From IMG/VR virus record IMGVR_UViG_3300028886_000045: 64,000 nucleotides of DNA; one strand, given 5' to 3'. The position numbers and the translations under genes were made by a program. The DNA is from a virus. Taxonomy: Duplodnaviria > Caudoviricetes. Below are positions 3,378-60,061 of this stretch, one piece after another (position 1 is the first letter of the stretch; the number at the start of each line of letters is the position of its first letter). The notes under the pieces are model-generated. The model was not told the origin of the DNA, did no database searches, and saw only the letters and a list, made by a program, of their open reading frames with translations.

Positions 3378-3405
3378 ATGACCTTGTTATTCTCTCGGTC
3401 GTGAG
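3378..3405 (-). promoter_or_regulatory. conserved 5'-leader H-type pseudoknot motif, copy 1
   Basis: CTC-ACGACC-GAGAG-AATAACAA-GGTCAT, 8 nt before ATG 3369; near-identical at 59769 and 60034. Confidence 0.7.
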
Positions 3406-3438
3406 TTCTAAAATTTGTCTTTGTTTTTAATTACAATG

Positions 3439-3470
3439 CAAAGATACTACATTTTTCTGATATTTGCAAA
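3439..3470 (-). promoter_or_regulatory. Bacteroidetes primary-sigma promoter (representative of about 26 copies)
   Basis: TTTG-N20-TATCTTTG. Other -7 boxes (lowest coordinate) at 3673, 3910, 4382, 4549, 8033, 14996, 18660, 20886, 26326, 29470, 34754, 37346, 40041, 43943, 44686, 45451, 50472, 50730, 54161, 54466, 55207, 58820, 60095, 61379 on minus and 35099 on plus. Confidence 0.9.
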
Positions 3471-3542
3471 TTTTTTGCCAACTTTTTTCGATAAATTACC
3501 AACTTTTACCAATTTTGTAATCCCAACATGGCAATTACGCAT

Positions 3543-3665
3543 AAAAAAACGATGTAATCTTCACAGACTACACCGCTTTCCTTTAATTATATACCACGCT
3601 TTTCTCCGCTGAGAAAAGTAAATTAAAGAACCTATGATTAATTACTATTATATAACTACCTTTTC
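3543..3665 (-). ncRNA. candidate sRNA (promoter 3673..3704 to GUGA-loop terminator)
   Basis: No ORF; ends CGGUGUAGUCU-GUGA-AGAUUACAUCG-U7; internal CUUUUCUC/GAGAAAAG hairpin. Confidence 0.55.
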
Positions 3666-3726
3666 TTGGTTGCAAAGGTACTGCTTTTTTCTGACACATA
3701 CAAACTTTCTGCCAACTTTTTTTTGA

Positions 3727-3903
3727 TAAAAAAAATTAGGCACTATCCTCTCGGATAATACCTAATCAATTCGACTCCAAATTACGTCTGAAAAAAGAAA
3801 TATCTTATATTAACTAAAAACAGTATCTTTCAAAAAGTAAGGGGTATTTATCACAAATACCCCAAACCGCCTAAAATCCTAAATCATGAGTAAAATTCAA
3901 ATC
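3727..3903 (-). ncRNA. candidate tandem sRNAs (promoter 3910..3941, two hairpin-U units)
   Basis: GGGGUAUUU-GUGAU-AAAUACCCC, then AUUAGGUAUUAUCC-GAGA-GGAUAGUGCCUAAU-U tract; no ORF. Confidence 0.55.
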
Positions 3904-3959
3904 CCATTGCAAAGATACAAACATTTTTTGTATTATGCAAATTTTCTGACAACTTTTTT

Positions 3960-4295
3960 TCAAAGCGTTTCCAACCGCTTGCAAAAAAAACGATAATCTC
4001 TACACGCCCCTTCCGCGCATACCCTCCCTACCTTTTTTCCGCAACGTGTCAAACAGAATGCATCCTTTGCCCTAAATATCATTTCCTCTATACAATCGCT
4101 GAATGTAGGTATGCGGTTGTTCCTTTCGGTAAACTTTGTGACATACGAGATTTCCCTTTCGGCTTGCTCATCCGTCAAGGCATCACACGCTTTCAGTCGG
4201 TTGGCTTCCATTTCTTCACCACGGAACTTATAGCCATCCTCGTACCCCTTGCGATAAATCTTTTCCTCGCTGTCCTTTCTTTTCAATTCTTCCAT
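3960..4295 (-). CDS. phage protein, 'PTFSD' paralog family
   Basis: NRL.AC...ERE...F.E.....PTFSD.IE shared with 13826..14284. Confidence 0.7.
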   Translation of the reverse strand: MEELKRKDSEEKIYRKGYEDGYKFRGEEMEANRLKACDALTDEQAEREISYVTKFTERNNRIPTFSDCIEEMIFRAKDAFCLTRCGKKVGRVCAEGACRDYRFFCKRLETL

Positions 4296-4435
4296 ATTCT
4301 TTCAGATTAAAAATATGCGCAACCGCAAAGTGTCACGCATACTAAAATAACATAAAATGACAAAATAGAATAACTTTGGTACAAAGGTACGTTTTTTTTC
4401 TGATTTATGCAAATTTTCTACCAACTTTTTGACAC

Positions 4436-4543
4436 AAAAAAAAAGATGTACATTCTCACGAATATACATCCCTATCGCCTAAATTAATTTTTTAGTGTCA
4501 TCAAAAAAATTCTAAAACCTAAATATAAAATTATCTCTATGTC
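4436..4543 (-). ncRNA. candidate sRNA (promoter 4549..4580 to GUGA-loop terminator)
   Basis: GAUGUAUAUUC-GUGA-GAAUGUACAUC-U9; no ORF. Confidence 0.55.
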
Positions 4544-4642
4544 ACTTGCAAAGGTACGCTTTTTTATCCTACTATGCAAATTTTTTACCAACTTTCTTTT
4601 GTCTGCTACCAACTTTTACGGATTTTGCTATCTACACATTAC

Positions 4643-4676
4643 AAAAAAAGGTATCTACGCTCACGCGCAAATACCT
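4643..4676 (-). terminator. intrinsic terminator with GNRA loop
   Basis: AGGUAUUUGCGC-GUGA-GCGUAGAUACCU-U tract after 4729..4989. Confidence 0.8.
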
Positions 4677-4728
4677 CCCATTCAATAATTAATGTAACTG
4701 TGTAAATCAAAAAATCAAAACAAAAGTA

Positions 4729-4989
4729 TTATTCGGTATCATATATCCGCTCCCCTAACTTGGTTATTGCCATTTTAGCCACGGAATTATATTTGTCAAA
4801 CAAACTTAGCGAATCCACACTACCATTTACAACCCATTCGCCTACGGAGATTAACAACGCCACGCACGCCACAATCACCTTAACCTCTAAATATACCATA
4901 TATGCGATACAATAGTAAAGCACAAACAATATTCTTCTTATTATGCCGTTTATTCTTTTCATTCTTCTTATCCTTTCTGTACATCGCAA
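4729..4989 (-). CDS. membrane protein
   Basis: Hydrophobic ILFVLYYCIAYMVYLEVKVIVACVALLISV segment. Confidence 0.55.
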   Translation of the reverse strand: MRCTERIRRMKRINGIIRRILFVLYYCIAYMVYLEVKVIVACVALLISVGEWVVNGSVDSLSLFDKYNSVAKMAITKLGERIYDTE

Positions 4990-5210
4990 CTATCCCTATC
5001 CTTGTAATAGCCACACGCCTTATCTGTCACCTTTATAGTCTTAAATCCGCTATTGCTTCTTTTGCTTGGTAGCAACTCGCAACATTGCACGACCTTTGGA
5101 CTGAACTCATTCAATGCGAACCTTGCACGATACAAGCAAGTGCGACAATATTTCTGCTCCCCATTCTTCTGCTGTGGAACATCATCGAACAAAGACAACT
5201 CCTTACACAT
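4968..5210 (-). CDS. small Cys-rich protein
   Basis: CRTC..CC..AC; N-terminal ELSLF. Confidence 0.65.
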   Translation of the reverse strand: MCKELSLFDDVPQQKNGEQKYCRTCLYRARFALNEFSPKVVQCCELLPSKRSNSGFKTIKVTDKACGYYKDRDSCDVQKG

Positions 5211-5213
5211 ACA

Positions 5214-5429
5214 CTACACCCCCTTTTCTTCTTTTAAGGCTTTTGCGACTTCACCACCACGGAAACGCGATTTGTTCTCGCTTATCCATTCGCAGAACTT
5301 TTCACTCATATCTGACGCGCCCTTTTCGTAAGCCTCCTTTATCATACTATAAATAGTGTCGGAACGATATGGTAACGCCTTCATCATATCGTCTGCATAC
5401 TTTGTTGCCATTTCACTTATTCGTGCCAT
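5214..5429 (-). CDS. small phage protein, 'AYxxGA-D' family
   Basis: EAYEKGASD..EKFCEWI. Confidence 0.6.
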   Translation of the reverse strand: MARISEMATKYADDMMKALPYRSDTIYSMIKEAYEKGASDMSEKFCEWISENKSRFRGGEVAKALKEEKGV

Positions 5430-5673
5430 ACTTCTTTGCCCTTTTTATCCCTTTTCGCTTACGTTCTTTTCCATAACCGCTAAAATTCAACCGTAACTTT
5501 CACTTTCTTTATTTCTACCTTTTCCCCCTCGCTTACCATTCTGGCTATACGCATAGCCAAACTTCTAAACTTAAAGAACTTTGCGTATTCCAAATCTTCT
5601 GAGAATGCAAAATGTGGTGTATAAAACATTCCATCAGAACGCTCTATAATCCACCGCGTCAATTCCTTTTTTG

Positions 5674-6132
5674 TCATTTTCCTAACTCTGATAAAGTTTT
5701 TGTTACATTGCTTTCCGTTGAAATCGCGAGACCCTTATCAATCAATCGCATAAAGTCAAAATGCTTTCGCAAAAGCCAATCCAATCCACCCATTATATGC
5801 GATATGTCACCGATTGCATCCCACGGCTCATTATCTTCAAGCACATCAATTCGCCACCCTAACGCTTCAAACTCTCTTCTTTCCGCAAGGGTCATAGAAG
5901 ACATAGGTCTTAAAAATGGTCTGATATGTTCAACACCTACTTGATGGCAAAAGCCGAAAGAAAAAGAATTTGCCCTACCACTTCCGCATTCACCATTTAT
6001 AAAGAAACGAGTAAGTTTTGCAGTAGTACCACGACCGACCATGACAGTAAGGTCATACGTTGAAGCCATTGTAAGGAAACGCAAAAGCAAATTCTTTTCT
6101 TCTTCTGTTATGTTCAATCTCTTTATTTTCAT
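5674..6132 (-). CDS. phage protein, 'PYLRPMSSMT' paralog family
   Basis: LLLRFL..PFLRPMSSMT..DWL..HFDF..LI..GLAI; four copies in window. Confidence 0.75.
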   Translation of the reverse strand: MKIKRLNITEEEKNLLLRFLTMASTYDLTVMVGRGTTAKLTRFFINGECGSGRANSFSFGFCHQVGVEHIRPFLRPMSSMTLAERREFEALGWRIDVLEDNEPWDAIGDISHIMGGLDWLLRKHFDFMRLIDKGLAISTESNVTKTLSELGK

Positions 6133-6563
6133 TCTACCTTGAAATTATCTGCCACTTCATCCTCACCGCACAACCTCAAAGCGTGTTGCAGTTCGTGAAC
6201 GTAGGTTATTTCTACACCGCCCAACACCAAGAAAGGCGCACAGAATCCAAATATCTTTAGTTTATGGTTACATTCCCTAAACCAATCATACGTTGTCCCA
6301 TCGAACAAATATCCGTTTGCGACCAATATTTCAAATGTAAGCCTTATCGGAATACAAGTATTAAAAGGTCTTGACGCAATCCCCTTTGTTCGTGGTAACG
6401 TAACCTCCACCGTAATATCGTTAGGATTCTCGTAAGGGTCAAACACGCTTATTGATGTTACCCTCGCTGGGTACAAATCCTTTTCTTTTGGGTTGTCATT
6501 TGGGAATGAATACACATTTACCCAATCCCCCAACATTAACGACTTTATTTCTTGCATTTCCAT
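6129..6563 (-). CDS. phage protein, 'VHELQHALRL' family
   Basis: PI.LT..IL.ANG...VHELQHALRLCG..ADNFK shared with 11003..11461. Confidence 0.7.
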   Translation of the reverse strand: MEMQEIKSLMLGDWVNVYSFPNDNPKEKDLYPARVTSISVFDPYENPNDITVEVTLPRTKGIASRPFNTCIPIRLTFEILVANGYLFDGTTYDWFRECNHKLKIFGFCAPFLVLGGVEITYVHELQHALRLCGEDEVADNFKVE

Positions 6564-7261
6564 TTCCGCTATCTGTTATAGTTCGTATGCTTATGCAACC
6601 CCATAGACTTTACCTTGCTTTGAATACGTTTCTGCAAATGGCTTTCACCCTCTATCGTAAGTGACCCACCTAATTGCTTTTCCACGAAACCCATTATCTC
6701 CCTATTTGTAAACCCCCTTGCATTGGGATTACATCTTACAAAGTTCATGGTTTCCACTACAACCTTTTCAAATTCATCTCTTGACATATTGTTTCTGTAT
6801 TATTTTAGGTATCTGTTATTCTTTTATTTCGGACATTGAAAAATTTAACGACCACAACTTGCAATTAGGGTCAAAGTAGCCATGCTTATAGCATACTATT
6901 TCACCGATTTGTCTATGCACCGCGAAAAAGTAATCATTGTCATAGACATAACCGCTAAGAGTGCGTACCGCTAAAAGCCTACGAATGTTTTCCTTCTTGT
7001 TTTCCAAGAAAGTTTTCAAGTCGTGTGGGTACTTGTATTTCTTACTTTCTGAAACTTTCATACATTCTTTTTCTTTGTCTTTCAAACATTTCTTTATGAT
7101 ACTTTTCTGCCATTTCCGCGCGATGTTCAACCGACCAACTGAGCGCATAATCAAATCCCGCCAAATACGCGCGTTCTATCTGCTCCATGACTGCATCATC
7201 GTCTTTCAGTTTGAACACGCGCTTTCCGTATATACGCCCACGCTTCTTTATTTCCTTTCGA

Positions 7262-7732
7262 TTATACGTTTTCATTTTCATTCTTTAGGGAAATTCTAAT
7301 ATCCAAATTCTTATACAAAAGTTCTTCGTTTATAAGGTTGTAAGCGACCTTTTGCCTTATTTCACTTTGCATAATCTTTTGCAGACTACTTGAATATGTG
7401 CCGTGAATGATTTCACCCACTTGTCTCTTGACCTCCTCGGCAATCATATCCCTTATCATTTCCTTGGAAACTCCCACATCATTAATGATAAAGTTCTTAA
7501 CCGCCTTAAAGTTGGTCTTTCCGTCAATCAGCAACACAACCTCAATCGGTTCTTCATTATCCCACTTTGGGGTAATGTTAGGTGACAAATGGAACTGCTC
7601 GACATTATCAAGCCTTATCATGCACCTATTGGCATCATCATAAGTCCAAATGCCGTTTTCCTTATCCTTGTATGGTTTGTTTAGTGACAACCAAACCGAA
7701 CCATCCTTATCTTCGCAAAGCCATGCTTTCAT
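7262..7732 (-). CDS. phage protein, 'WLxxDKxG' family
   Basis: MKAWLCEDKDG..KP..P.W..EEP.EV shared with 24181..24387. Confidence 0.65.
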   Translation of the reverse strand: MKAWLCEDKDGSVWLSLNKPYKDKENGIWTYDDANRCMIRLDNVEQFHLSPNITPKWDNEEPIEVVLLIDGKTNFKAVKNFIINDVGVSKEMIRDMIAEEVKRQVGEIIHGTYSSSLQKIMQSEIRQKVAYNLINEELLYKNLDIRISLKNENENV

Positions 7733-8082
7733 AATTTAACCTCCTTTAATTAATTTATCTTTCTACTATTGCCCTTCTCTTGACTTCATTGTTTGGGTTC
7801 TTTAAGTATGTTTATGAATTTTCTGAGACGAGGGCAGATATTACCCTTGCAACGATATTTCCGCTTTTGGCAATCCAAAGCAAAGCACTCATATACTTCT
7901 TTTGTGCCATCATGCTTTTTCAGCACAGAATTATTCGGACACGACCACCGATAAGCCTCAATAGCCCTTTCTATATCCTCTTTTGTCATAGCACATACTT
8001 TTGTTTTTATTGTTACATTCTTAATTACGTTGCAAAAGTACAAAAATTATTTGAATTATGCAAATTTTTTACCAACTTTTTT

Positions 8083-8343
8083 CTATTTGTCGGTAATTTT
8101 TAACAAAGGAGGGTCATTTGGTCTTTTGTTCCAATTATAGATAGCAATACCCTCCAACCATTCAAGCGTATAACCATGCTTGTTTATTATGGCATCCGTC
8201 CTTTGCACCCTACACCTCGGACACTTCACGACTATCTTCTGCGACTTGGTGTATTCGTTCCCTATCCTATGCCATTGGGGAGTCGCACCACAGAAAGGAC
8301 ACGGCTTTAACCTTTCGTCTGTTGAATCATAATTTTGTACCAT
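8083..8343 (-). CDS. Lar-like restriction alleviation / Zn-ribbon protein
   Basis: LKPCPFCG..CPRC..AIYNWNKR pattern. Confidence 0.75.
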   Translation of the reverse strand: MVQNYDSTDERLKPCPFCGATPQWHRIGNEYTKSQKIVVKCPRCRVQRTDAIINKHGYTLEWLEGIAIYNWNKRPNDPPLLKITDK

Positions 8344-8384
8344 ATCTTTTAATCTTGTAAATCGCGTAATGTGTAACTAATGCG

Positions 8385-8530
8385 CCACAGTATATTAAAA
8401 TTTGAACAAACTTATCTGTTCGTTATTAACTTCTTGCTTCAACCTACCACTACTTTTTAGGTGGTAAAACCACGTTCATCCATAGTCGGATAGTCCGCAA
8501 GCGTAAATTTGGGTGTACTGCACCCTATTA
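8385..8530 (-). ncRNA. putative TnpB omega-RNA / element right end (approximate)
   Basis: Expected position overlapping tnpB 3' end; hairpins including GAACAGAU/GUUUGUUC at about 8404..8421; TTGAAC(A) motifs also upstream at about 9686..9703. Confidence 0.4.
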
Positions 8531-9650
8531 TTCTTAAACCCTCGTCAAGTATATTCAATGCTGCATTGTAGTCCCTTTCAACCACTTCACCACATTGGGA
8601 ACAAACCCATCGTCTGTCATTTAATGTGAGGCTTTTGTTGATGTAGCCACAATTATGACACGTTTTACTTGATGGGTAAAACCTATCAACAAACACTATC
8701 TTTCGGTTATACCACCGTGCCTTGTATTCAAGCATCCTACGAAACTCGCCAAAATTCATTTCACAGATACTTTCAGCAAGGTTGTGGTTTTTAACCATTC
8801 CTTTCACGTTCAAGTCTTCCATACATATGACTTGGTTTTCGTCAATGAGTGAATTACTTACTGCGTGGAGATAGTATTGCTTCCTATCGTTTATCTTCTT
8901 ATATGTTTTTGCAAGCCTTATCCTTGCCTTGTTTCTGTTGTTACTTCCTTTTCGTTTCCTTGCCAACTGACATTGTAGCCTCTTAATCTTCTTTGTCTCA
9001 GGCTTCTTAAAATGAAGATTTTTGAATACTTCTCCGTCACTTGTTATCACAAAGTCCTTAATACCTAAATCTATGCCAACGGCAGACTTTGTTTCTTTTA
9101 CCTTATGCGTCAAATCACCGTCAACCAATATTGACAAATAATATTCGCCACATGGTAGTCTTGTTAATGTTGCTTGCTTTATATTGTCGTGATGTTTCTG
9201 CAAATACTGAGCATATTTCTCATTACATCTGAACTTGACATTTCTTATATTAGCAAGTGAAAGATGATATGTTGTATAGTCGTTACGTTTGGATATTGCA
9301 CCAAGTTCAAATCTGCAACTTTGCTTGTTGTCGTGCTTTGACTTGAATTTAGGAAATCCATTATGCTTTTCAAAGAAATTATTGTATGCTGACAACATAT
9401 CTTTCACGGCTTGTTTGAGAACCTTTGTATTCTGTTCTCTAAGCCAAATGAAATTATCATCCTTCAATAGTTCGTGATGTACAAACAGCCCAAGCGTAGA
9501 AAGGTTTTCCGATTTACCGTCATTCTTGTATGATTCAATCTTTCTGTTAAGGCATTGGTTATAGACAACACGGTAGCAACCAAGCAACTTGCTTATCATT
9601 GTTGCTTGCTCCTTGTTTGGATATAATCGTATCTTTACCGCCCTTAACAT
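8457..9650 (-). mobile_element. tnpB: RNA-guided endonuclease TnpB (IS200/IS605/IS607 superfamily), no transposase alongside
   Basis: MLRAVKIRLYP N-terminus; RuvC-I GIDLG; RuvC-II MEDL; CHNCG/CSQCG Zn finger; RuvC-III RDYNAA. Confidence 0.95.
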
Positions 9651-9920
9651 TGCTTTTGACTTTTATTTCCCTTATTTTACTAAAATGTTCAATTTTGTTC
9701 AAATATTTATTTTGCTATTAAGTACACCCTTATTTGCCGATTCACTTTGTCTATTACCCACATATAATCATTATCAAACAGAAAGAATCTCCGTAAATAA
9801 TACTTATCCTCTTTCAGTAATTTTAGAATGTTCTCTTTTTTATTCTTTAGGAATAATTCTTTATTCGGTTCAAATCTGTATTCCATATAAACCTCCCTAC
9901 AAAACTTTGCAACACAAAAA

Positions 9921-10361
9921 TCAAATCTTTGCTTTTTTTGGGGGTAATGGTGGTAACATTCTCCAATGTGTCACTTCGTATTTTTCCTCAACGGAAAAGC
10001 CTGCTATATTCCACTCTCCCCTTGCAAAATCATAAAACGCCCTTTGTTGGTTGCAACCATTTGTAACCAACACATGAACGCTGAAATCTTTACATTTGGG
10101 GTCTTCATCCCTCGGTGGCAATCCGTCCGAAATCTCATGCCACCCATTTTCATCCATTATGGCAATACTTTCCTTTAATGCACGGATATACGCATCTTTG
10201 TACCCTTTTTCGTATTCAAGTTCACATACGCGCTTTATTATTTCCTTACATTCTTGCACGTTTTTCTTGATTACGTCTTCCACCTGTTTCTTAAACTCCG
10301 TTGGTATCATATCTATTTCTGTTTTATCCGATACTTGTATGTGGTGTTTTCCCAATCCCAA
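9921..10361 (-). CDS. DUF551-like phage protein (start probably internal)
   Basis: WHEISDGLP..VLV..VTHWRMLPPLP. Confidence 0.75.
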   Translation of the reverse strand: MGLGKHHIQVSDKTEIDMIPTEFKKQVEDVIKKNVQECKEIIKRVCELEYEKGYKDAYIRALKESIAIMDENGWHEISDGLPPRDEDPKCKDFSVHVLVTNGCNQQRAFYDFARGEWNIAGFSVEEKYEVTHWRMLPPLPPKKAKI

Positions 10362-11000: not shown

Positions 11001-11002
11001 AA

Positions 11003-25923: not shown

Positions 25924-26256
25924 TTAGAATCTATCCAAGTACATTGTGTAGTACATCTTACACTTTTTACAGATGATTTCCAAGGCTTCTTCAACCGACT
26001 TGCAATCGTGCCAATATCCACGACTTGAAGAAACGACTGCCTTTGTATCGTTGTCAAACATCTCACCGTCTGCTGAGAAATCCACCATATAGTAAAAGTA
26101 ATCCCCACCGTTTCTTATTACGCTGAGTTCTTTTGGGTTCTCTATTTCGATAACCAAGCGACACTCGAAACGCTTTGCCCAACACTTATCAAAAAGTGCC
26201 TGTAACTTCTGTTTGTTACTTTCGTTCATGCGGTGGTATGGATGATTATTTGCCAT
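25924..26256 (-). CDS. hypothetical protein (start re-assigned to MANNHPY)
   Basis: ATG 26256 follows pseudoknot motif and promoter 26326..26357. Confidence 0.65.
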   Translation of the reverse strand: MANNHPYHRMNESNKQKLQALFDKCWAKRFECRLVIEIENPKELSVIRNGGDYFYYMVDFSADGEMFDNDTKAVVSSSRGYWHDCKSVEEALEIICKKCKMYYTMYLDRF

Positions 26257-26263: not shown

Positions 26264-26293
26264 GTGACCTTTTTATCCACTTAGTCATGTGGT
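26264..26293 (-). promoter_or_regulatory. 5'-leader pseudoknot motif, covariant copy
   Basis: CCAC-AUGACU-AA-GUGG-AUAAAAA-GGUCAC; stem 1 is CCAC/GUGG. Confidence 0.6.
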
Positions 26294-26584
26294 CTTATTT
26301 TTACCTTTATCTCTTAATTACAATGCAAAGGTAGTCATTTTTTTTGAAATATGCAAATTTTTTACCAACTTTTTTCGCCTTTTACCAAAATTTTAACACT
26401 TTCGGTTAAAGATATGCGTCTTTATGCCAAAGACATTCAGCAAGTGAAGCCAATCCATACCTTGCGCCACCCAATAAGGTTACATCTTTCCACTTATTCC
26501 AAAAATGCTTTCGGTACTGCATATAATAGGTGGCATCATTCCTTAACACACGGAAATGTAAACTTCTGTAAACAATCTTTTCCA

Positions 26585-40179: not shown

Positions 40180-41064
40180 CTATTCACTTTCTTCTTCTGA
40201 AAATGCGTCATAGTCACCATCAATGTCTATAATATCCACCCTTTCCAACATATACGATGCTTGAAGGGTCTTTTCCATTGGGTCGCGGTGCATTTGCTCC
40301 ATAAACGCCATTTTCTCAGAGGGGGAGTTGAAACTAAGGATAACGTAACTAAGCATACCCCCATCATTTTCCAAATCGCTTTTGTTGTTTATCCTTTCCT
40401 TGATTTTTGCGACTTCGTTGTGTCTTGCAAGTTGGTTTTCTTCTGTATCTTCGTAGAAATCCACTTTGCGGTTTATCTTCGTGTTTTCTTCTGTTTCTTT
40501 GGTCTGCTTATCAACCTCTGCAAGTTCCTTGTTTTCCTTTGTCACGTCTTCTTTGCGCCATTGCCTTTCTTCTTTCGGCTTTTCTTCTGCGTCCACTTTC
40601 GAGCGTGCCTCCTCTTCTGCCAAATCCACGACTTCCAAGCCAAGCATTTCCATATCGAAATCGTCAAAGCCCGCGCTCTTGTAGTCTATATCCGACAACA
40701 TTTCCCTTAACATATCATCGTCATATTCACCTTGCGCCTTTCTGTTGTTCATGAAAAGGTTTTGTTCCTTTTCCGTCTGCAAGTCCAACTCTACGACATC
40801 AACCCTTAACATATAGTCGGTTTCCAAGTCGTTCTCGTCATACTTGTTTACCTCGTCCAATATGCTTACTTTCTGATGCCCCGAAACAATATTTCCCGTG
40901 GTCTTGTTATAGACAATTCCACCCATAACGCCAACCTTTTTCAAGTTAGCCTTCAGTAGTTTGCGCGATTCTTCGCTTATCTTTCGTGGGTTGTATTCCG
41001 CTAAGTGTATCTCACTCCTCTTGATTTCAACACTTTGCGCTTGCTTTATCTTGCTTTGCTTCAT
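40180..41064 (-). CDS. ParB/Srx N-terminal-like protein with acidic tail (copy 3)
   Basis: YNPRKI..GGIVYN..TGNIVSGHQ..EKEQNLFMNN..QGEYD. Confidence 0.85.
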   Translation of the reverse strand: MKQSKIKQAQSVEIKRSEIHLAEYNPRKISEESRKLLKANLKKVGVMGGIVYNKTTGNIVSGHQKVSILDEVNKYDENDLETDYMLRVDVVELDLQTEKEQNLFMNNRKAQGEYDDDMLREMLSDIDYKSAGFDDFDMEMLGLEVVDLAEEEARSKVDAEEKPKEERQWRKEDVTKENKELAEVDKQTKETEENTKINRKVDFYEDTEENQLARHNEVAKIKERINNKSDLENDGGMLSYVILSFNSPSEKMAFMEQMHRDPMEKTLQASYMLERVDIIDIDGDYDAFSEEESE

Positions 41065-43859: not shown

Positions 43860-43933
43860 TTGCGGATAAAGGACTCGAACCCTTGACCACTTGCAAGTTA
43901 AACAAGTATGCTAACCAACTGCACCAATCCGCG
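43860..43933 (-). tRNA. non-canonical tRNA: initiator-type acceptor stem, anticodon AAC, U37/U38
   Basis: CGCGGAT-TG-GTGC AGTTGGTTA GCAT-A-CTTGT TTAACTT GCAAG-TGGTC-AAGGG TTCGAGT CCTTT-ATCCGCA-A; promoter 43943..43974; CCA not encoded. Confidence 0.85.
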
Positions 43934-47632: not shown

Positions 47633-48565
47633 CTACTCAAACATACTGAGGAACTTTGAGGCTTCAATTACCAAATTTGCCGTGTTGTTAAATCCAAACA
47701 TTTCACAAAAATGCTCCTTTTCTTCCATATTGGCAAAACTTATAACCACATATTTCTCCGCATCGTCTAACTGATTGGATGCGTGCACTTCACAATGTTT
47801 CTTTGCACCCTTGACCTCTTCTTTCGTCATGTGTGGCATTTCTTCGTGCATTTTCACAATTTCTTCGCTTGTCATTTCCCTACTTGGTAGTTCTGTGACT
47901 GCTTCCCTTTGCGGTGCTTGCTGTGGCATTTGCTGTGGTACTTGATACGTTTGTTCCCCACCGTCACCTTCTGACACCCCACTCGCTTGCATTGCGTCTG
48001 TCTGTGGTGTTTCCGTCTGTGGTGTTTCCGCTTGTGGTACTTCGTCTTTCGGCTGTTCTGTTGCCTTTGGCTTTGGTGCAAACGCATCTTCCATTGTAGC
48101 CATCATGCCAATGGTGCTTTCTTCGTAATCAGCCTCATATTCTTTCAAGTCCAAAATCTGCTCATATTCCTCTTCTGAAATGCCGACCTCCTTGTAGTCT
48201 ATATCGTCTATGATATGTGCAACAAGGTTGTAATCAGCCTTTGAATTTGCCAAAGCCATAAAAGCCAACTGCTCCTTTTCGGCTTTCGCGTCCAATTCGG
48301 TTACTTCGACCTTGATTTCATAATCGGTTTCGGGCGTGCCATCATACTTGTTAAGTATATCCAATGACTGAACGCGCCTATTTCCGTCTATGATATTCCC
48401 CGTTACCGAGTTAATCAGCACACCGCCAAAATATCCCTTTGTCCTAATGTTTTTGGCTTGCAACTTGATTTGCTCATCGGAATGGTTCTTAATATTGTAA
48501 GGTGTTAGGTTGATTTCCGACCTTTTAATTACCTTGGTTTCGCTTTTACTATAATTCTTTGCCAT
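47633..48565 (-). CDS. ParB/Srx-like protein (copy 1) with low-complexity linker
   Basis: NIKNHSDEQIKLQ..TGNIIDGNRR; PQ(A/T)ET repeats. Confidence 0.85.
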   Translation of the reverse strand: MAKNYSKSETKVIKRSEINLTPYNIKNHSDEQIKLQAKNIRTKGYFGGVLINSVTGNIIDGNRRVQSLDILNKYDGTPETDYEIKVEVTELDAKAEKEQLAFMALANSKADYNLVAHIIDDIDYKEVGISEEEYEQILDLKEYEADYEESTIGMMATMEDAFAPKPKATEQPKDEVPQAETPQTETPQTDAMQASGVSEGDGGEQTYQVPQQMPQQAPQREAVTELPSREMTSEEIVKMHEEMPHMTKEEVKGAKKHCEVHASNQLDDAEKYVVISFANMEEKEHFCEMFGFNNTANLVIEASKFLSMFE

Positions 48566-49806: not shown

Positions 49807-49818
49807 AATAATAAAGTG

Positions 49819-50346: not shown

Positions 50347-50384
50347 AATTTAAGTGCAAATTTATTAATTATTATGCTAATATG

Positions 50385-51157: not shown

Positions 51158-51160
51158 TTG

Positions 51161-52526: not shown

Positions 52527-52528
52527 AC

Positions 52529-53173: not shown

Positions 53174-54122
53174 TCTTATGTTTCTCTGCGTTTCTTTTAA
53201 TTACATCCGAAAACAACTTATCGTGTGAGCATATATCAATTTTGTGCTCACTCTTCATAACTTGCAACACCGTCACGCAATACATAAAAACTAACTTGTA
53301 TTGCTTTAGGAAATCCGCACCCTTTGCCTTAATATCTTCACCCATAAAGCGCGATGCGTACAAATCCCACATCAAATCCAAATCCCCCTCGCCATTTGGG
53401 ATTAAGGCTAAAATCACACACGCGACCATAAAAAGGTTTCGGCAATCCTTTAGGTTCTTATCAATAAAGCCTTCTTCATAGCCATCTATTACCTTTGCAC
53501 CATCCTTTACCAAGTCAAAGATATTGCAAAGTATTTCCATTTTCTTGTAGTTCGCCTTTTCTTCTTCTGCTGTCGGCTCTTTCCTACTTTCCACGGCATC
53601 CCTTAACGAGCGCAAATCCGTGCATGAATAACCTTGACTTACCGCCCATTCGTACATGATAGATGAATGTGTCAAATCAAGGGGAATATTACCTTTTTCG
53701 ACATATCCGATTATCTGCTCCCTCGTCCACTTTTCCAACCACAACTTTACCTTTGCAACATACGCGCATTCTAAGACTTCACATATAGCCTCAATCATGC
53801 TTTCGTCTGTCACCTTGCAGTCTTCCACCACAGTATCTATACAGACACGCGCTTGTAGGCTTAAATCCGTTTCGCTTTTGTTGTCAATGTACTTGTTTTT
53901 GTTTTCTTCAAAAAACTCGTCCATCGTACATAGCACGGATATAGCCTTGTTTACGGCTACTTCTACGGCTTTATTCTCGCCAATCTTTTGAAATGCTTCA
54001 TTCTGAAACATTAAGCAAGTGCAAATGATAAGGTAATGCGCCTCACCTTCCGACTTGACACGGTTCTGCAAACCGTCCAAAAGCATTGCGCGTGCAATCC
54101 TCTTGTTAAATTTTCTTTCCAT
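53145..54122 (-). CDS. hypothetical helical protein
   Basis: 325 aa; follows promoter 54161. Confidence 0.75.
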   Translation of the reverse strand: MERKFNKRIARAMLLDGLQNRVKSEGEAHYLIICTCLMFQNEAFQKIGENKAVEVAVNKAISVLCTMDEFFEENKNKYIDNKSETDLSLQARVCIDTVVEDCKVTDESMIEAICEVLECAYVAKVKLWLEKWTREQIIGYVEKGNIPLDLTHSSIMYEWAVSQGYSCTDLRSLRDAVESRKEPTAEEEKANYKKMEILCNIFDLVKDGAKVIDGYEEGFIDKNLKDCRNLFMVACVILALIPNGEGDLDLMWDLYASRFMGEDIKAKGADFLKQYKLVFMYCVTVLQVMKSEHKIDICSHDKLFSDVIKRNAEKHKNDKEKTEYK

Positions 54123-54211
54123 TCAATTTTTATCTTAATTACAAACTTAAATTTCTTCTGCAAAGGTACGAAAAATTTGTATATCTACCAACTTTTTTAA
54201 CGCTTTTTTAT

Positions 54212-54378
54212 AAAAAAATGGCTCTTGTATCACTACAAAAGCCACCTTACCATTAACTTCTTAAAATTTTTATAACTATGACTTTATCTAAACAGACAAT
54301 CTATTTCAAAGAAAAAGGGCGCATTTCTTACGAAAAAAGCACCCTTAAACATTCATGTAAATATGGAAAAAAAATTCG
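54212..54378 (-). ncRNA. tRNA trailer with two hairpin-U units (candidate sRNAs)
   Basis: GGGUGCUUUUUUC-GUAA-GAAAUGCGCCC-U5 and UGGCUUUUGUA-GUGA-UACAAGAGCCA-U7. Confidence 0.45.
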
Positions 54379-54451
54379 TTGCAGGGGATGGACTCGAACC
54401 ACCGACCACAAGGATATGAGCCTTGTATGCTACCGACTGCACTACCCTACG
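54379..54451 (-). tRNA. tRNA-Met(CAU), initiator-like C1:A72
   Basis: CGTAGGG-TA-GTGC AGTCGGTA GCAT-A-CAAGG CTCATAT CCTTG-TGGTC-GGTGG TTCGAGT CCATC-CCCTGCA-A; promoter 54466..54497. Confidence 0.9.
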
Positions 54452-54506
54452 ATATTTTCATGTTGCAAAGGTACGACTTTTCTTTGAAACCACCAAACTT
54501 TTACCA

Positions 54507-54800
54507 TTATTTTTTGGTATAACTTTCTAAATTTTTGGTATAGTATTCAAACTCCTTGAATTGCATAACCACATCTTGCGCCTTTTTCATTACTTTCTCC
54601 ATAGTCATAATCTTTGATTTCAGATTTCGTATGTCACGTTTCGCGTACTGCAACTCGTTCATTAATCGCCTACGTTCTTCATTCACATACTGCTTTTTAT
54701 AGTATTTCTTTCCCTTTTGGAAAGCATACTCAAAAACTTCATCTTTCTTCATTTGGCGCAACGCTTTCTTATCGTGCTCATTCAGTTCAATTTCCATCAT
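54507..54800 (-). CDS. coiled-coil hypothetical protein
   Basis: Heptad-like K/E-rich sequence. Confidence 0.6.
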   Translation of the reverse strand: MMEIELNEHDKKALRQMKKDEVFEYAFQKGKKYYKKQYVNEERRRLMNELQYAKRDIRNLKSKIMTMEKVMKKAQDVVMQFKEFEYYTKNLESYTKK

Positions 54801-55174
54801 TTCAGAATCTTTACTTTTACGTTTTCTATCTTTATGCGCTTGGAATTTTTAGGGTGTATCAGTATGTCAATTCGGTGTTTGTGTCGCTTATTCATAAGGT
54901 CACGCACCTCGTACACGCCAAACCCTTCAATCCAAACCCTTTTCGGCTTACCCTTTGGGAACAACCAAACCAAATCCCTACTTATCGCACACCATTGTAT
55001 TTTGCCGTGCTTTAGGTGCTTTAGGTTTATCTTGCTCCCATCGGCTGTTATCAATGGTTGGCTATTGCATTGTGCCTTTATTGGTTGATAGCACGTTAAA
55101 GTAACGTGTGTTGTCTGTGCGCTCATCGCAATCGTAAGCAACAAAGACAATAAAGATATTATTATTTTCTTCAT
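54797..55174 (-). CDS. secreted 3D-domain (MltA-like) protein
   Basis: Signal peptide; TCY..TADG..AISRD..VWIEG.G.YEVRD..IDI. Confidence 0.75.
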   Translation of the reverse strand: MKKIIISLLSLLLTIAMSAQTTHVTLTCYQPIKAQCNSQPLITADGSKINLKHLKHGKIQWCAISRDLVWLFPKGKPKRVWIEGFGVYEVRDLMNKRHKHRIDILIHPKNSKRIKIENVKVKILK

Positions 55175-55273
55175 ATTTCTTACTATTACTTAAAAGGTTT
55201 TCAATGCAAAGATACCAACTTTTACCAACTTATCCAAACATTTTAACCCTTGAAAGAACTAATTAACCTTTGT

Positions 55274-57496
55274 TTACAAAGGCACGTTTGTAAGTTGTCT
55301 TCTGTCATTATACAAATTCCAATCACCCACGGCATTTTGACGGAATACCAATTTATGAACTTCACCGAACCTATAAGTGTTTCCGCATAAGTCCACTATC
55401 CAACCATCCTTTCCCTCAAATGGTCTGATTCCGCGCCCCACTTCTTGATAATAACGTGATAGGCTCATTGTAGGCGTACCCAAAACGATTGTGTCCAAAT
55501 CGGGTCTGTCGTAACCGCAAACCAAAGTAGAACAATTCAAAAGAACTTGGAACTCGCCCCTATTGAACTCGTCCAAAATCCTTTCCCTTTCTTTCTTTGG
55601 GGTCTTTCCGCTAACCATTTTCGCGCTTGGTATCGTCTTGGTCATGTGTTCTGCCAATTCCACCAATCGGACAAATACCAATATACCGTGTCGTGGCACA
55701 CCGCTTTTAGGGTGTTGCAAACGCTTGATTATACTTTCCATGTGTTCGTAGAAATGGCAATGCTCCTCCATCCACCTCAAACTCGACTTGGAAAAATCAG
55801 TACCCACGGTATTCTTGAATACTTTCTCCATATTCATTTTTGGCGGTCTGACATCAAAGTATCGCAAAGGTGCAAGGAAACCCTCACGCAACAGATATTG
55901 GGTATCTACATTATACAAAACCTCGCTAAACACTTGACCGTTACCGACTATGGGAACTAACATAGAAACCGCATCGGACATATCCATTTTCTTATTCTTC
56001 CAATCCCATTTCTGTCCTTCCGTCTGCAATCTGTAAGGCGTTGCAGTAAGTCCGATTATCTTTCTGTTCATTATATTAAAGAAATCGAAATACATACCCT
56101 CAGAAGGATTGATTGTGTGTGCCTCGTCCACAATTATATACTTGAACTGCTTGAACAAAGACGGATAGGACTTAGCACTACCAATCGTTGCAAACGTAAC
56201 CTTTGCAATGTTCTTTTTTCCTACTGATGCCGAATACATAGCGCAATCATCCGTATAGGTTTTCATTTTCTTGTAATTCTGCATCAATATTTCCTTTGAA
56301 GGTTGGAATACCAACACCTCGCTATTCAGTTTCTTTGCTATATCGGCAATAACAAGGCTTTTTCCGCAATTATGGTGTATGAAATACTGCCAATCCGCAT
56401 ATAGATGGTTTCCGTCCAACGTAAATCCGTAGTATTCACCGCGTCCTATACTTTCGACTGAAAAACCCTCCACATAGATACTTTTCCGTTGCTTTCGTGG
56501 CTTACCCTTGCGTTCTGCAACCCTATTGGGTATTATATCCAAATCACCGCTTATCTGCAATCTGTAATAATTCACGCCCTCCACAAACTTATCCCTAATA
56601 CTTGCATACAAACCCACCGACCTACAAAGAAACTGAATATCATAAGCCAAACGCTTTGACTTAGTGCAATACTCGTACACGTTCTTTTCTTCGTCATAGT
56701 AGGTATCTGTATCTATCAAGCCACCCAAAAGCAAAAGCCTATCCTCTCGCCTTGCATACTTGAACTCCTTGGGAATAAACTTATCCCCCGACCTTGATTC
56801 AAACAATTCATAGCGCATCAAGTACGATTTTAACGGATTAAAGTTGTTTTTGTCGGCTTCTCTATGCGTAAACATATACGATGACGCAATACCGCTCCCC
56901 TTTGGCACGACCCTTATATTAAAGCCGTATTTGTCGGCAAAGTCATAAAGGAATGATACTACTTCCTTATGCCTTGTCGTTATCCCCAATCCGCTAACGG
57001 AGCATCCGTCACCGATAAACAAACCCATAAAATAAGGTTCTACCGCCCAACCATCGAAGCAATCCAACCCCTCCAATCTGTATAACTTATGTAAATGCTT
57101 GTAGGATTTGTTTTGGCGCAAATAATCCCTTACGGATATTTCGTCATACGCGATTTTATCACCGCTCCATCTTCGTGTGCGATATAAAGAAAGAATATGC
57201 CCACCGTTCACCACAAACGGCTCGCCCTTTTTGGGAACTATCCTATACATATCATCCTCACCCCTATGCAAAGACAATACGTTTCGCGGTTTTCCATCAT
57301 CACCCATTACCTTATCACCCACCTTAATATCTTCAACATTCTTTAACGAACCATCCGACATCATAATTGGATAACCTTTTGCGTGACACCCCGTAGCCAT
57401 CACCAACAATCCGTTTCCCTTTCTTCTATCGTCAGTAAGGAACTTTACGGCTTCTTCTGAGGCTTCTTTCTGATATGGTCTTAACTCGTACTTCAT
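55274..57496 (-). CDS. SF2 DEAH-box helicase with intein
   Basis: LRPYQ; Walker A MATG|CGKS split by intein; VDEAH; GLTATP; G.DRP; QEVGRGIR. Confidence 0.92.
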   Translation of the reverse strand: MKYELRPYQKEASEEAVKFLTDDRRKGNGLLVMATGCHAKGYPIMMSDGSLKNVEDIKVGDKVMGDDGKPRNVLSLHRGEDDMYRIVPKKGEPFVVNGGHILSLYRTRRWSGDKIAYDEISVRDYLRQNKSYKHLHKLYRLEGLDCFDGWAVEPYFMGLFIGDGCSVSGLGITTRHKEVVSFLYDFADKYGFNIRVVPKGSGIASSYMFTHREADKNNFNPLKSYLMRYELFESRSGDKFIPKEFKYARREDRLLLLGGLIDTDTYYDEEKNVYEYCTKSKRLAYDIQFLCRSVGLYASIRDKFVEGVNYYRLQISGDLDIIPNRVAERKGKPRKQRKSIYVEGFSVESIGRGEYYGFTLDGNHLYADWQYFIHHNCGKSLVIADIAKKLNSEVLVFQPSKEILMQNYKKMKTYTDDCAMYSASVGKKNIAKVTFATIGSAKSYPSLFKQFKYIIVDEAHTINPSEGMYFDFFNIMNRKIIGLTATPYRLQTEGQKWDWKNKKMDMSDAVSMLVPIVGNGQVFSEVLYNVDTQYLLREGFLAPLRYFDVRPPKMNMEKVFKNTVGTDFSKSSLRWMEEHCHFYEHMESIIKRLQHPKSGVPRHGILVFVRLVELAEHMTKTIPSAKMVSGKTPKKERERILDEFNRGEFQVLLNCSTLVCGYDRPDLDTIVLGTPTMSLSRYYQEVGRGIRPFEGKDGWIVDLCGNTYRFGEVHKLVFRQNAVGDWNLYNDRRQLTNVPL
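56369..57388 (-). mobile_element. intein (340 aa) with LAGLIDADG homing endonuclease
   Basis: Starts CHAKG, ends IHHN, +1 Cys; FMGLFIGDG and LLGGLIDTD motifs. Confidence 0.92.
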
Positions 57497-57501
57497 TCTT
57501 T

Positions 57502-57993
57502 CTACTGCTTTGGATAACTGATGCCTAACCTTGCAGAAAGACTATCCAACCGCCCCCCTACGAGGTATTTCTGCATCATATCCCCTAATTCTTCAACCTT
57601 TTCCGTGTCCGACATTTCGTCTTCGCCATGCAGATAGCGACAATGAAGAAACTTTGATATTTTGCCATTATCGCCAAACATTCTGCAAAGTTGCGGTCTT
57701 TGCAAGTATATGTTACACTTGCAATCCGCGCGTAAGAAAGGGCATTTGTTCTTTGCCAAACTTTCATCCGTTATCGGTAACACCACATTTGCGTCCCCAA
57801 ATTCATCACTATAACGTATAATTGGATTCACGATTTTCTTACGATACGCGCCAATCAGTTTCTTATCCAATGGTACGTTATAGCAACAATTTGCATGGCA
57901 TACGTTAGTCTTGCATTTGTTCATCTTCACAAGTAGGTAACTGATAGTTCTTTGGGTACTCCTTGACATACTCACGTCTTCCATTTTCTGCAA
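57502..57993 (-). CDS. YkgJ-like Cys-cluster protein (start likely internal)
   Basis: C..CHANCC..CPFL..C.C.IY..RP.LCR.F. Confidence 0.8.
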   Translation of the reverse strand: MQKMEDVSMSRSTQRTISYLLVKMNKCKTNVCHANCCYNVPLDKKLIGAYRKKIVNPIIRYSDEFGDANVVLPITDESLAKNKCPFLRADCKCNIYLQRPQLCRMFGDNGKISKFLHCRYLHGEDEMSDTEKVEELGDMMQKYLVGGRLDSLSARLGISYPKQ

Positions 57994-58923
57994 TCAGCAC
58001 CAACCGCCAACGTATCTCGCCCAATCGCGGAAACAGCAAACGCGCCCTACATTCTGCCATTTTGATAGTTTCCTCATATGTAGGTCTTAACTTTACTATG
58101 ACCGTCCCATAGTAATTTTGCCCATCCATAAGGTTTAGGTTTTCAATTTCAAAAACCACTTTCTTTGTACTTTGTTCTTTCTTTTCCATACTTCTTATTT
58201 TACATAAATCTTCGTTTCATAATCACCGCTTGCAAAAAGTCTGTATATATCCCTTAATGCAAGACTTGTTTCGCTTATATGATTTCCGATTACCAAGTAA
58301 CCGCAAACGTGTAATGACAAATTCAAGTCACACCGCAATTCCTTTAACTGAATGTAAAACACATCCCTTACTTGATAATAGTTTTTATCACTTGTAGGGG
58401 TTACGGTGTAAAGCACTTCTTTCATGCAATACTTTTCAAGGAAACGCAACCCCACCTTTAGTTTTCTTTCGCGTCTGATTTCATTATACACTACAAAACA
58501 TAGTGCAAGAATGCCAACGGCAAACCATACGCACAATATGATATTTGCAATTTTCATTTATCCCTCCTTTCGCACCAATTTTGAAACTCGCCAACATTTT
58601 TGAAACGTGGATGTCGTGGCAGTTCAAAACCGTCTTGCGTCAGTTTGAAATCAAACAAACCATATATATATTCGCGTTCTTTGTTGTAGTACATTACTAC
58701 CCTTTCGCCTATCCGTTTCAATGTTGCATCTTTGCGGACAGGCTTCTTTTCCGACAATTCAATTTCCATATTTATCTTAATCTTAAAAGGTATGTAAATA
58801 TTGGTTCAGCAACCACTTGCAAAATTACCAACTTTTTTCCACTTTACCAAATTTTGTTGGTATTTTTACCATTTATTAACAATAGGCGGTGCATTCGTTA
58901 ATCAGAACACACCGCCTTTTGTC

Positions 58924-59130
58924 TTAATGTACATCCATCACCTTCAGTACCTTCTTGTTTCCGACAATGGAAACTTCTGCCAAAGCATCATAGCCTAACT
59001 TTTCAGCAACTTCTTTTGATGCCACTTGGTAGCCTTTTCTTTCCTTTATGGCTACAAGGTAACTAACACCATGCTTTAGATTAGCCACAGAAACAGCAAA
59101 GGCTATGCTTTCGATTTCTTGATATGTCAT
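58924..59130 (-). CDS. hypothetical protein
   Basis: Preceded by pseudoknot motif. Confidence 0.65.
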   Translation of the reverse strand: MTYQEIESIAFAVSVANLKHGVSYLVAIKERKGYQVASKEVAEKLGYDALAEVSIVGNKKVLKVMDVH

Positions 59131-59136
59131 AATTAC

Positions 59137-59164
59137 GCGGTCTTTTTACCTCTGACCATGAGGG
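59137..59164 (-). promoter_or_regulatory. intercistronic pseudoknot motif, covariant copy
   Basis: CCUC-AUGGUC-A-GAGG-UAAAAA-GACCG; stem 2 is GGUC/GACC. Confidence 0.65.
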
Positions 59165-59500
59165 TTACTTGTTACCGATTAAAAACATTTCAGATTCTTG
59201 CTTTTTTGTAAAAGGGATTACATAACCCTTTTCAATATCGCTATATTGTGCCATGCTATACTGCTTATCACAGAATAGGCGAACCTCGTACACCTTTGAC
59301 AACTTCTTGAAAGCCTCTGCCTTTTCTTTCAGATATTTACGCGCATTTTCCTCAGATGCAAAGTGCTTTCGTGCATTCTTTCCGTAACTATCACCAAACG
59401 CACTATCCATAAGAATCTTTGAATCTTTCTTTGTGACTATGCCTTTCTGTGCGCGAAACTCCACCCAAACAATTTTATATGATGATAATACCATTTCCAT
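59165..59500 (-). CDS. hypothetical protein
   Basis: Operon after promoter 60095. Confidence 0.65.
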   Translation of the reverse strand: MEMVLSSYKIVWVEFRAQKGIVTKKDSKILMDSAFGDSYGKNARKHFASEENARKYLKEKAEAFKKLSKVYEVRLFCDKQYSMAQYSDIEKGYVIPFTKKQESEMFLIGNK

Positions 59501-59521
59501 ATCGCTAATTTTTTTGTTGTT

Positions 59522-59761
59522 CTACATTTTTAGACCTTTCACAAAGATTTCTCCTATCTTTGTTGGTTTACGCCATTTCTCATTAGGGTAATTACCCCTA
59601 AAATCCCATTGCACAAGGGTACTCCACTCCCTTTCCCAAATAACACCATCGTTCAACTCCTTTAACTTTTCCGCTATGGCTTTGCAAGCCTTGGCGTTTT
59701 GGCTTACTTCTGAATTTTTGCTTTTAAGTTGTACTTCCAACTCTGCTAATAGGTTGCCCAT
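59522..59761 (-). CDS. hypothetical protein
   Basis: Preceded by pseudoknot motif. Confidence 0.65.
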   Translation of the reverse strand: MGNLLAELEVQLKSKNSEVSQNAKACKAIAEKLKELNDGVIWEREWSTLVQWDFRGNYPNEKWRKPTKIGEIFVKGLKM

Positions 59762-59768
59762 AATTTCT

Positions 59769-59798
59769 ATGACCTTGTTATTCTCTCGGTCGTGAGGG
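59769..59798 (-). promoter_or_regulatory. intercistronic pseudoknot motif
   Basis: CCCUC-ACGACC-GAGAG-AAUAACAA-GGUCAU fills most of the gap between stop 59799 and ATG 59761. Confidence 0.7.
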
Positions 59799-60026
59799 TT
59801 AATTGATTTCTATTACTTGGTACTGTCCTTCCATTGGGAAAGCCTTTGCCACTTCGTTTATTTCGGCTATTGCTTTAGATACTTCATTGTCTGCAAACAC
59901 CTTTGCGTACCTCTTGTATCTGCAAGTTCTGAAACTTACCCCATTTTCTCCTTTCTGATAATAACTAAGGTAATTAACCTTGCAGTCCTTAACTTGCATT
60001 ATAACAAATTTCTTTTCTTTCTTCAT
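59799..60026 (-). CDS. hypothetical protein
   Basis: First gene after promoter 60095..60126. Confidence 0.65.
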   Translation of the reverse strand: MKKEKKFVIMQVKDCKVNYLSYYQKGENGVSFRTCRYKRYAKVFADNEVSKAIAEINEVAKAFPMEGQYQVIEIN

Positions 60027-60033
60027 ATCCTTT

Positions 60034-60061
60034 ATGACCTTGTTATTCTCTCGGTCATGAG
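60034..60061 (-). promoter_or_regulatory. 5'-leader pseudoknot motif
   Basis: CUC-AUGACC-GAGAG-AAUAACAA-GGUCAU, 7 nt before ATG 60026. Confidence 0.7.

Follow-up and report, generated by a model that had tools for sequence, protein, structure and literature searches.

A tiny H-type RNA pseudoknot, under selection for pairing, stands 8-10 nt upstream of 29 start codons in the mRNAs of a tailed phage (Duplodnaviria; Caudoviricetes; IMG/VR record IMGVR_UViG_3300028886_000045), and we tentatively read it as a cis-acting signal for translation start that may be recognized by the host ribosome. The phage record comprises 178,667 bp with an estimated completeness of 96%, and the stretch analysed here (64,000 nucleotides, hereafter the window) is the reverse strand of its first 63.5 kb, with all genes running in one direction. 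A preliminary description of the window had reported five minus-strand copies of a pseudoknot that it could not assign to any named family, and reading the window sequence directly recovered all five at their positions, with three exact occurrences of the 21-nt core GACC...GGUC versus none in 100 dinucleotide shuffles. The element is real and uncatalogued and belongs to no named family in Rfam: a search of the window with Rfam 15 returned two tRNAs only, with no match to the knot at the gathering threshold, and nothing overlapped any knot even at E ≤ 10 in searches of stretches with three copies each.

To count copies over the whole genome, we used a sequence-blind structure descriptor (stem 1 (S1) of 3 bp, loop 1 (L1) of 1-3 nt, stem 2 (S2) of 4 bp, loop 2 (L2) of 1-3 nt, an A-rich loop 3 (L3) of 5-9 nt and an ATG within 4-13 nt), which matched at 37 start positions on the coding strand versus 1 on the opposite strand. 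Removing four obvious chance matches from this list left 29 copies, every one on the coding strand and none on the opposite strand, and an ungapped scan with the consensus sequence likewise found ~26 copies on the coding strand and 0 on the other. A covariance model (R1) built from 28 of the 29 copies returned those 28 at E ≤ 1e-9 and an indel variant in the window at E = 0.64, with no other match in the genome. Outside the window, at genome position ~154100 (L017 ~10100-10135, plus strand), a decayed knot missed by R1 lies behind a normal promoter and leader; its stem 1 (CUC/GAG) is kept, its stem 2 is gone and an ATG follows ~10 nt on.

The knot spans 26 nt with the geometry S1(3 bp)-AC-S2(4 bp)-RA-S1′-RAUAAMAA-S2′, followed by 8-10 nt to the AUG, and its sequence consensus reads C-N-C / AC / G-R-Y-Y / RA / G-N-G / RAUAAMAA / R-R-Y-C / AY, with 6-8 nt more before the AUG. 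S1 thus pairs C-N-C with G-N-G, and S2 pairs G-R-Y-Y with R-R-Y-C. The loops are almost invariant, with AC in L1 (A followed by C, U or A across copies), RA in L2 (A invariant) and RAUAAMAA in L3. By contrast with the loops, the stems change while remaining paired: in the 24 distinct copy sequences, all 168 of 168 stem cells are standard pairs, and four of the seven pairs show changes on both sides. The middle pair of S1 is U-A in 15 sequences, C-G in 6 and A-U in 3, and pairs 2-4 of S2 switch between A-U and G-C, C-G and U-A, and C-G and U-A, respectively. Cells changed on both sides number 32, compared with 9.5 ± 3.2 after shuffling, a value that none of 500 shuffles reached; sliding the 3′ partners by 1-3 columns lowered pairing to at most 46%, and the observed stem combinations require at least six independent double substitutions. 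The compensatory change in both stems and the A-rich third loop that had been described from five copies therefore stand on firmer ground genome-wide, in this larger alignment.

The stems had been drawn with the right pairing, but S1′ is the second GAG of the GAGAG segment, making L2 two nucleotides long (RA), because the copies reading CAC...AA-GUG and CCC...AA-GGG are unambiguous. Two window copies (59139-59163 and 26266-26292) have a 4-bp S1 and shorter loops, and since these variants keep the topology, it is robust to indels. The three changes found on a single side are G.U or U.G on the sense strand, corresponding to A.C on the opposite strand. Because the helices are interleaved, the half-sites change and the wobbles exist in the sense orientation only, the element is an RNA pseudoknot in mRNA rather than a DNA operator.

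Placement relative to the start codon is equally strict. An ATG follows the last S2 base by 8-10 nt in 29 of 29 copies, so that the knot occupies approximately −35 to −10, with L3 at −21 to −14 and S2′ at −13 to −10. The 6-8 nt given in the preliminary description is the same spacing, as the motif there included the trailing AU/AC, and the link to start codons that it drew from five genes gains strength across the genome. The window copies, with their promoters and downstream genes, are as follows.

60036-60061, minus strand: pseudoknot copy 1, CUC-AU-GACC-GA-GAG-AAUAACAA-GGUC; AUG at 60026, 9 nt on.
60095-60126, minus strand: Bacteroidota-type promoter for copy 1, TTTG ... TAccTTTG.
59799-60026, minus strand: 75-aa ORFan downstream of copy 1.
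59771-59796, minus strand: pseudoknot copy 2, intercistronic; the upstream TAA stop ends 2 nt 5′ of the knot; AUG at 59761, 9 nt on.
59522-59761, minus strand: 79-aa ORFan downstream of copy 2.
59139-59163, minus strand: pseudoknot copy 3, intercistronic, the indel variant, CCUC-AU-GGUC-A-GAGG-UAAAAA-GACC; S1 of 4 bp, both stems off-consensus, topology unchanged; AUG at 59130, 8 nt on.
58924-59130, minus strand: 68-aa ORFan downstream of copy 3.
26266-26292, minus strand: pseudoknot copy 4, CCAC-AU-GACU-AA-GUGG-AUAAAAA-GGUC, with one U.G wobble; AUG at 26256, 9 nt on.
26326-26357, minus strand: promoter for copy 4, TTTG ... TAccTTTG.
25924-26256, minus strand: 110-aa ORFan downstream of copy 4, with an ATG start.
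3380-3405, minus strand: pseudoknot copy 5, of consensus sequence; AUG at 3369, 10 nt on.
3439-3470, minus strand: promoter for copy 5, TTTG ... TAtcTTTG.
3097-3369, minus strand: 90-aa ORFan downstream of copy 5.

As previously described, two of these copies nearly fill their intercistronic gaps (34 and 37 nt, with the upstream stop 1-2 nt 5′ of the knot), and the other three follow consensus promoters, the TTTG-N-TAnnTTTG element ending 33-34 nt before the knot. Genome-wide, 23 of the 29 copies lie behind a Bacteroidota-type promoter, TTTG-N17-21-TAnnTTTG, with a common leader, and the remaining six, including the two in the window, are intercistronic, have no promoter and begin 1-7 nt past the upstream stop. 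The distance from the start of the −7 box to the knot is about 33-46 nt, a spread of 13 nt, and the spacing to the start codon is much tighter. In addition, ~20 intergenic promoters of the same class share the leader start CATTGTAATTAAGAAAC and continue into short, A-rich, knot-less leaders; two of these promoters drive tRNAs. Because same-class promoters occur without the knot and its distance to the ATG is tight, the knot is a separable, optional module tied to individual start codons, in leaders or between cistrons.

The promoter cassette itself is uniform at ~45 sites genome-wide, comprising an A-rich upstream block AAAAAAGTTGGYAAAAAA, TTTG, TAnnTTTG and the transcript start CATTGTAATTAAGAAAC. 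The two tRNA genes in the window (54379-54451 and 43860-43933, minus strand; 58 and 49.5 bits with Rfam) have a promoter of this class and no knot. Outside the window, at genome position 101311-102300 (L014:11311-12300, plus strand), the phage encodes a 330-aa protein that combines HTH_17 with the C-terminal domain of the RNA polymerase alpha subunit (alpha-CTD; PF03118), which has three knot genes within 1.2 kb downstream and relatives that include one on a 188-kb contig; the phage may use this protein to read the A-rich block ahead of the promoters.

The 29 proteins encoded behind the knots are 58-203 aa long, and only three pairs of them are related. Pfam identified one DUF2958 protein and one to two proteins with MutS domain I, the rest being ORFans. 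Since they are small ORFans behind host-type promoters, it is plausible that the knot genes are early genes. Two stand-alone proteins of ~100 aa with MutS domain I, the mismatch-binding domain, lie directly behind knots (L016:4778-5062 and L012:16787-17101, both plus strand; E = 6e-14 and 3e-3) and may interfere with host mismatch repair as small decoys or inhibitors. The sequence UUAGAA or a near variant lies just 5′ of most copies; it is out of frame with the ATG and was rejected as an in-frame stop. An upstream open reading frame was also rejected, given that an ATG occurs inside the knot in 3 copies only.

Searches beyond this phage found no further copy. Exact-pattern scans of IMG/VR, JGI metagenomes and GTDB genomes yielded no genuine knot, four IMG/VR pattern matches being due to chance. 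The structure descriptor gave neither a copy nor, at the geometry of the knot, more matches than on the opposite strand in relatives identified through the large terminase subunit TerL (63-66% identity), the helicase-primase (41-50% identity) or the alpha-CTD/helix-turn-helix (HTH) protein, and R1 had no match in five whole related phage records. GenBank phages contain no close relative, and the best lead towards a relative is the 188-kb Logan/ENA contig, which encodes a 45%-identical protein (P0002). As for partners that might base-pair with the knot, the reverse-complement 9-mers of the knot module gave only scattered matches of at most 14 nt, and a candidate small RNA of this genome showed no pairing with the knot. 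Mimicry of 16S rRNA was discarded as well: the match of UAACAAGGU to approximately 1498-1506 has a probability of ~0.1 by chance and is lost in the covarying copies.

A different motif occupies the corresponding place in other genomes. The first ~15 transcribed bases of the leader are found in at least 119 further IMG/VR contigs, 60-130 kb long, in which the homologous leaders continue not into this knot but into NGUGAG(A/G/U)CACACN, an A-rich run and CUG(U/C/A). This sister motif (loci L253-L371 in IMG/VR, for example L290:3335-3360 and L290:3635-3660, and L372-L436 in GTDB, for example L399, upstream of 623-2161 on the minus strand) has no Rfam match and is absent from this phage. It can be read as a hairpin of 4 bp, the outer pair of which covaries in bacterial genomes (G-C 35, C-G 27, G.U 1); support for a possible second stem of 3 bp is partial, and 48 of 63 contexts form its third pair. 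An ATG follows the motif at 8-10 nt in 37 of 86 distinct viral contexts. In GTDB the motif occurs in 65 genome stretches, mostly from Bacteroidota (Alistipes, Prevotella/Segatella and others), with an ATG following at 7-10 nt in 51 of 63 contexts; the genes behind it include cysS (in five Bacteroidales metagenome-assembled genomes) and those for large ParB-like proteins, SSB and ArdC. A tRNA-Cys-like reading of the motif before cysS was rejected, as its loop does not fit an anticodon loop. We treat the sister motif as an analogue rather than a proven homologue of the knot, which looks like one phage's version of an apparently wider habit of Bacteroidota mobile elements.

Ribosomes of Bacteroidia sequester the anti-Shine-Dalgarno (anti-SD) sequence in a pocket formed by bS21, bS18 and bS6, and for initiation they depend on adenines at −3, −6, −12 and −13 together with low structure (PMC9976891). 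The phage start regions agree with these rules: its genes show no enrichment of SD sequences (15% versus 14% in the control) and are A-rich at −12 to −14. Among the functions that the preliminary description had suggested for the element (a translational enhancer, a nuclease block, or a ligand- or protein-binding switch for early genes), the evidence leans towards a role in translation start exerted through the host machinery and argues against a ligand switch of the preQ1 type.

We therefore speculate, as a tentative reading that may well not hold, that the knot is a cis-acting translation-start signal read by the host 30S subunit or its protein bS1. The folded knot and its A-rich L3 would be bound by the 30S subunit, most likely through bS1 and/or the platform, and binding would load the ribosome onto the mRNA at a constant spacing to the AUG. 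In this way, the knot would take over the recruiting and positioning job of the SD sequence for selected small accessory genes, probably early ones, in a host whose ribosomes cannot use SD pairing; a later-acting repressor on the same knot would be compatible with such a signal. Reading by the host 30S subunit or bS1 is favoured because an element of the same architecture and spacing appears to serve host and conjugative-element genes in many genera, and because genes expressed on entry need translation before any phage protein exists. It is also favoured because S1 binds H-type pseudoknots with nanomolar affinity and one of them anchors the 30S subunit on tisB mRNA (PMC7708055). L3, in turn, resembles the S1-dependent A-rich element RAYARAA, and ACA triplets have been reported in S1 ligands (PMC1702504): L3 is within one base of RAYARAA in 25 of 28 copies and contains ACA in 20 of 28, a likeness that counts as a weak point. 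In addition, no recognizable RNA-binding protein was found in searches of the phage, although the T4-family controls were also silent.

Several observations weigh against a start signal read by the host. The evidence of covariation stems wholly from paralogous copies in one genome, and pattern, descriptor and R1 scans found no knot in other genomes. Each helix alone is weak (approximately −2.0 and −2.9 kcal/mol), and the fold probably needs tertiary contacts or a partner. S2′ places G at −12/−13 in approximately two-thirds of the copies, so the knot violates two of the Bacteroidia rules, low structure and A at −12/−13, and a damping or repressible element fits equally well. RAYARAA is common in the genome (2.2 per kb), making the likeness of L3 to S1 ligands weak, and the strict conservation of the loops would suit a dedicated protein just as well. 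Furthermore, the knots front small ORFans rather than obviously high-output structural genes, and the link to the sister motif rests on analogy, its second stem being poorly supported.

We consider it rather improbable that the knot goes further and is a cis-folded stand-in for the SD/anti-SD helix, docking on the platform and setting the AUG in the P site as a bacterial signal resembling an internal ribosome entry site, and forming with the sister motif one sequence-diverse class for rapid expression on entry. For such a stand-in, a stacked helix of 7 bp would cover the SD-equivalent positions of the mRNA, with S2′ at −13 to −10.

The main rival, which we judge unlikely but worth serious attention, is a shared translational operator, in which an ORFan product of the phage or an RNA-binding protein of the host would bind the knot and block 30S loading at the AUG 9 nt away, switching off an early regulon of ~29 small genes. 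Invariant loops on covarying stems are what such a protein would read, the spacing would set it over the ribosome-binding region, and placement gene by gene, including runs of three adjacent genes, suits selective control; with knot-bearing and knot-less genes under one promoter class, sorting them after transcription would be an advantage. The knot also displaces the favoured A at −12/−13 and adds structure (PMC9976891), and there are precedents in T4 RegA, which acts on ~30 mRNAs, and the gene 32 pseudoknot operator (PMC3014915). However, RegA (PF01818), RNA recognition motif (RRM) and S1-domain proteins were not found in the phage, nor were RegB and bS21; these negatives are weak, as the two T4-family controls were silent, and so were the control genomes for RegA. 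A phage-specific repressor would further misfit the analogous motif that precedes host cysS and entry genes of mobile elements in many genera, and entry genes are translated before any phage protein exists.

A role in mRNA processing or stability, with an endonuclease cutting at UUAGAA and the knot capping the new 5′ end and slowing decay, or with the knot simply stabilizing the transcript, appears distinctly doubtful. UUAGAA or a near variant does stand before most knots, and in three of the intercistronic cases it is distinct from the stop codon; the knot is close to the 5′ end of 23 transcripts; the RNase III sites of T7 offer a precedent for repeated intercistronic structures. But stability would not need the ATG locked at 8-10 nt, a 7-bp knot of approximately −5 kcal/mol is a poor block to nucleases, and knot-less operons begin their 5′ leaders in the same way.

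A small-molecule riboswitch of the preQ1-I architectural type shares the topology, the marginal stability of the knot could mean that a ligand is needed, and some preQ1-I tails hold UAACAA, as L3 does. We nevertheless find it very improbable. No preQ1 or other riboswitch matched even at E ≤ 10, L1 (AC) and L2 (RA) lack the U and C that read preQ1, and S1 has 3 bp instead of 5; TGT/DpdA and QueC were not found in the phage, and the 29 copies precede unrelated ORFans.

An element acting on transcription, whether as a nut/put-like RNA altering RNA polymerase or as a DNA operator beyond the promoter, is a similarly long shot. In its favour, 23 of 29 copies are preceded by a −7 box of one promoter class that starts about 33-46 nt ahead of them; on the other side, the remaining six lack a promoter, and the knot keeps its distance to the ATG far more strictly than that to the promoter. 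A DNA palindrome read by a protein is excluded, as the repeats interleave, the half-sites vary yet stay complementary, the G.U pairs are sense-only and 29 of 29 copies lie on one strand. Least credible of all is a neutral passenger of a duplicated promoter-leader cassette, since, although most copies sit in very similar promoter and leader sequence, no fewer than six independent double substitutions have preserved pairing with zero mismatch, knots without the cassette and cassettes without the knot both occur, and the decayed copy at ~154100 shows that unselected copies erode.

Compared with known systems, the knot is close in setting to the pseudoknots selected by S1 in systematic evolution of ligands by exponential enrichment and to the 5′ pseudoknot of tisB +42 (PMC7708055), which are H-type knots upstream of a start that could anchor the 30S subunit through S1, with A-rich or ACA-containing single strands adjoining the helices, as here. 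The likeness to an S1-dependent standby or enhancer knot would thus lie in the fold class, the near-RAYARAA loop and ACA in 20 of 28 copies. By contrast, tisB has a single knot ~100 nt from a sequestered ribosome-binding site with an SD sequence, whereas here 29 copies lie 8-10 nt from the AUG in an SD-blind host. The start-associated sequence (SAS) and extended SAS (ESAS) of Cluster K mycobacteriophages (PMC3203893) are, like the knot, lineage-specific and absent from the host, recurring in a single orientation a few nt upstream of the ATG in many non-structural genes with no relation to one another. However, SAS is a 13-bp sequence of the GGGATAGGAGCCC type with the SD core AGGAG, 3-7 bp before the start, whereas the knot has no SD and belongs to another host phylum; for the ESAS hairpin, the authors saw little compensatory support (PMC3203893), whereas the knot covaries perfectly.

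T4 RegA likewise exerts post-transcriptional control over many early mRNAs at the initiation region (PMC3014915), but its sites are unstructured, A/U-rich and overlap the AUG, unlike a covarying knot that ends 8-10 nt before it. The gene 32 operator of T4 and T2 is a compact coaxial leader pseudoknot (PMC3014915), but it lies ~67 nt upstream of one autoregulated gene for a ssDNA-binding protein and is followed by an unstructured nucleation tract, in contrast to 29 copies before unrelated genes. The E. coli rpsO (S15) operator is also a leader knot that sits on the 30S platform and governs initiation; however, it contains the SD sequence and the AUG and serves a single autoregulated gene, whereas the knot described here ends 8-10 nt short of the AUG and precedes unrelated genes.

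The preQ1-I riboswitch (RF00522) and the frameshift knots of luteoviruses (for example, beet western yellows virus) are very small H-type pseudoknots with a 2-nt loop 1 and an A-rich loop 3 able to lie in the minor groove of stem 1, and the knot described here has this fold class in common with them. preQ1-I reads its ligand through a U in L1 and a C at the end of L2 and has a P1 of ~5 bp, whereas the knot has no covariance-model match, none of these reading residues, an S1 of 3 (rarely 4) bp and no link to queuosine genes. Frameshift and read-through knots sit 5-8 nt past a slippery site or leaky stop in the translated frame; here, 23 copies have no upstream open reading frame and the six intercistronic ones start 1-7 nt after a stop.

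Other features of the genome were recorded in passing. The last 758 bases of the window (63243-64000) recur at 99.5% at the other end of the contig (177910-178667), whose first ~215 bases are repeated as its last ~215, the record being labelled linear; because the contig ends repeat each other, this suggests terminal redundancy or a circularly permuted genome. The window also encodes a 397-aa transposase (8457-9650, minus strand; phrog_506, E = 2.8e-119) and two paralogous ParB-like/methyltransferase-like proteins (40180-41064 and 47633-48565, minus strand; phrog_9353, phrog_498 and phrog_620).

How start codons are chosen without the SD sequence in Bacteroidota, a dominant gut phylum, is partly understood, the known factors being upstream adenines and low structure. 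A tiny, strictly placed and covarying knot used 29 times, together with an analogous motif in hosts and mobile elements, offers a concrete and easily mutated handle on this choice. If the knot recruits the ribosome, it would be a new kind of bacterial start signal and a ready expression part for engineering Bacteroides and Prevotella, and if it is an operator, it would define a phage translational regulon with a regulator of phage or host origin.

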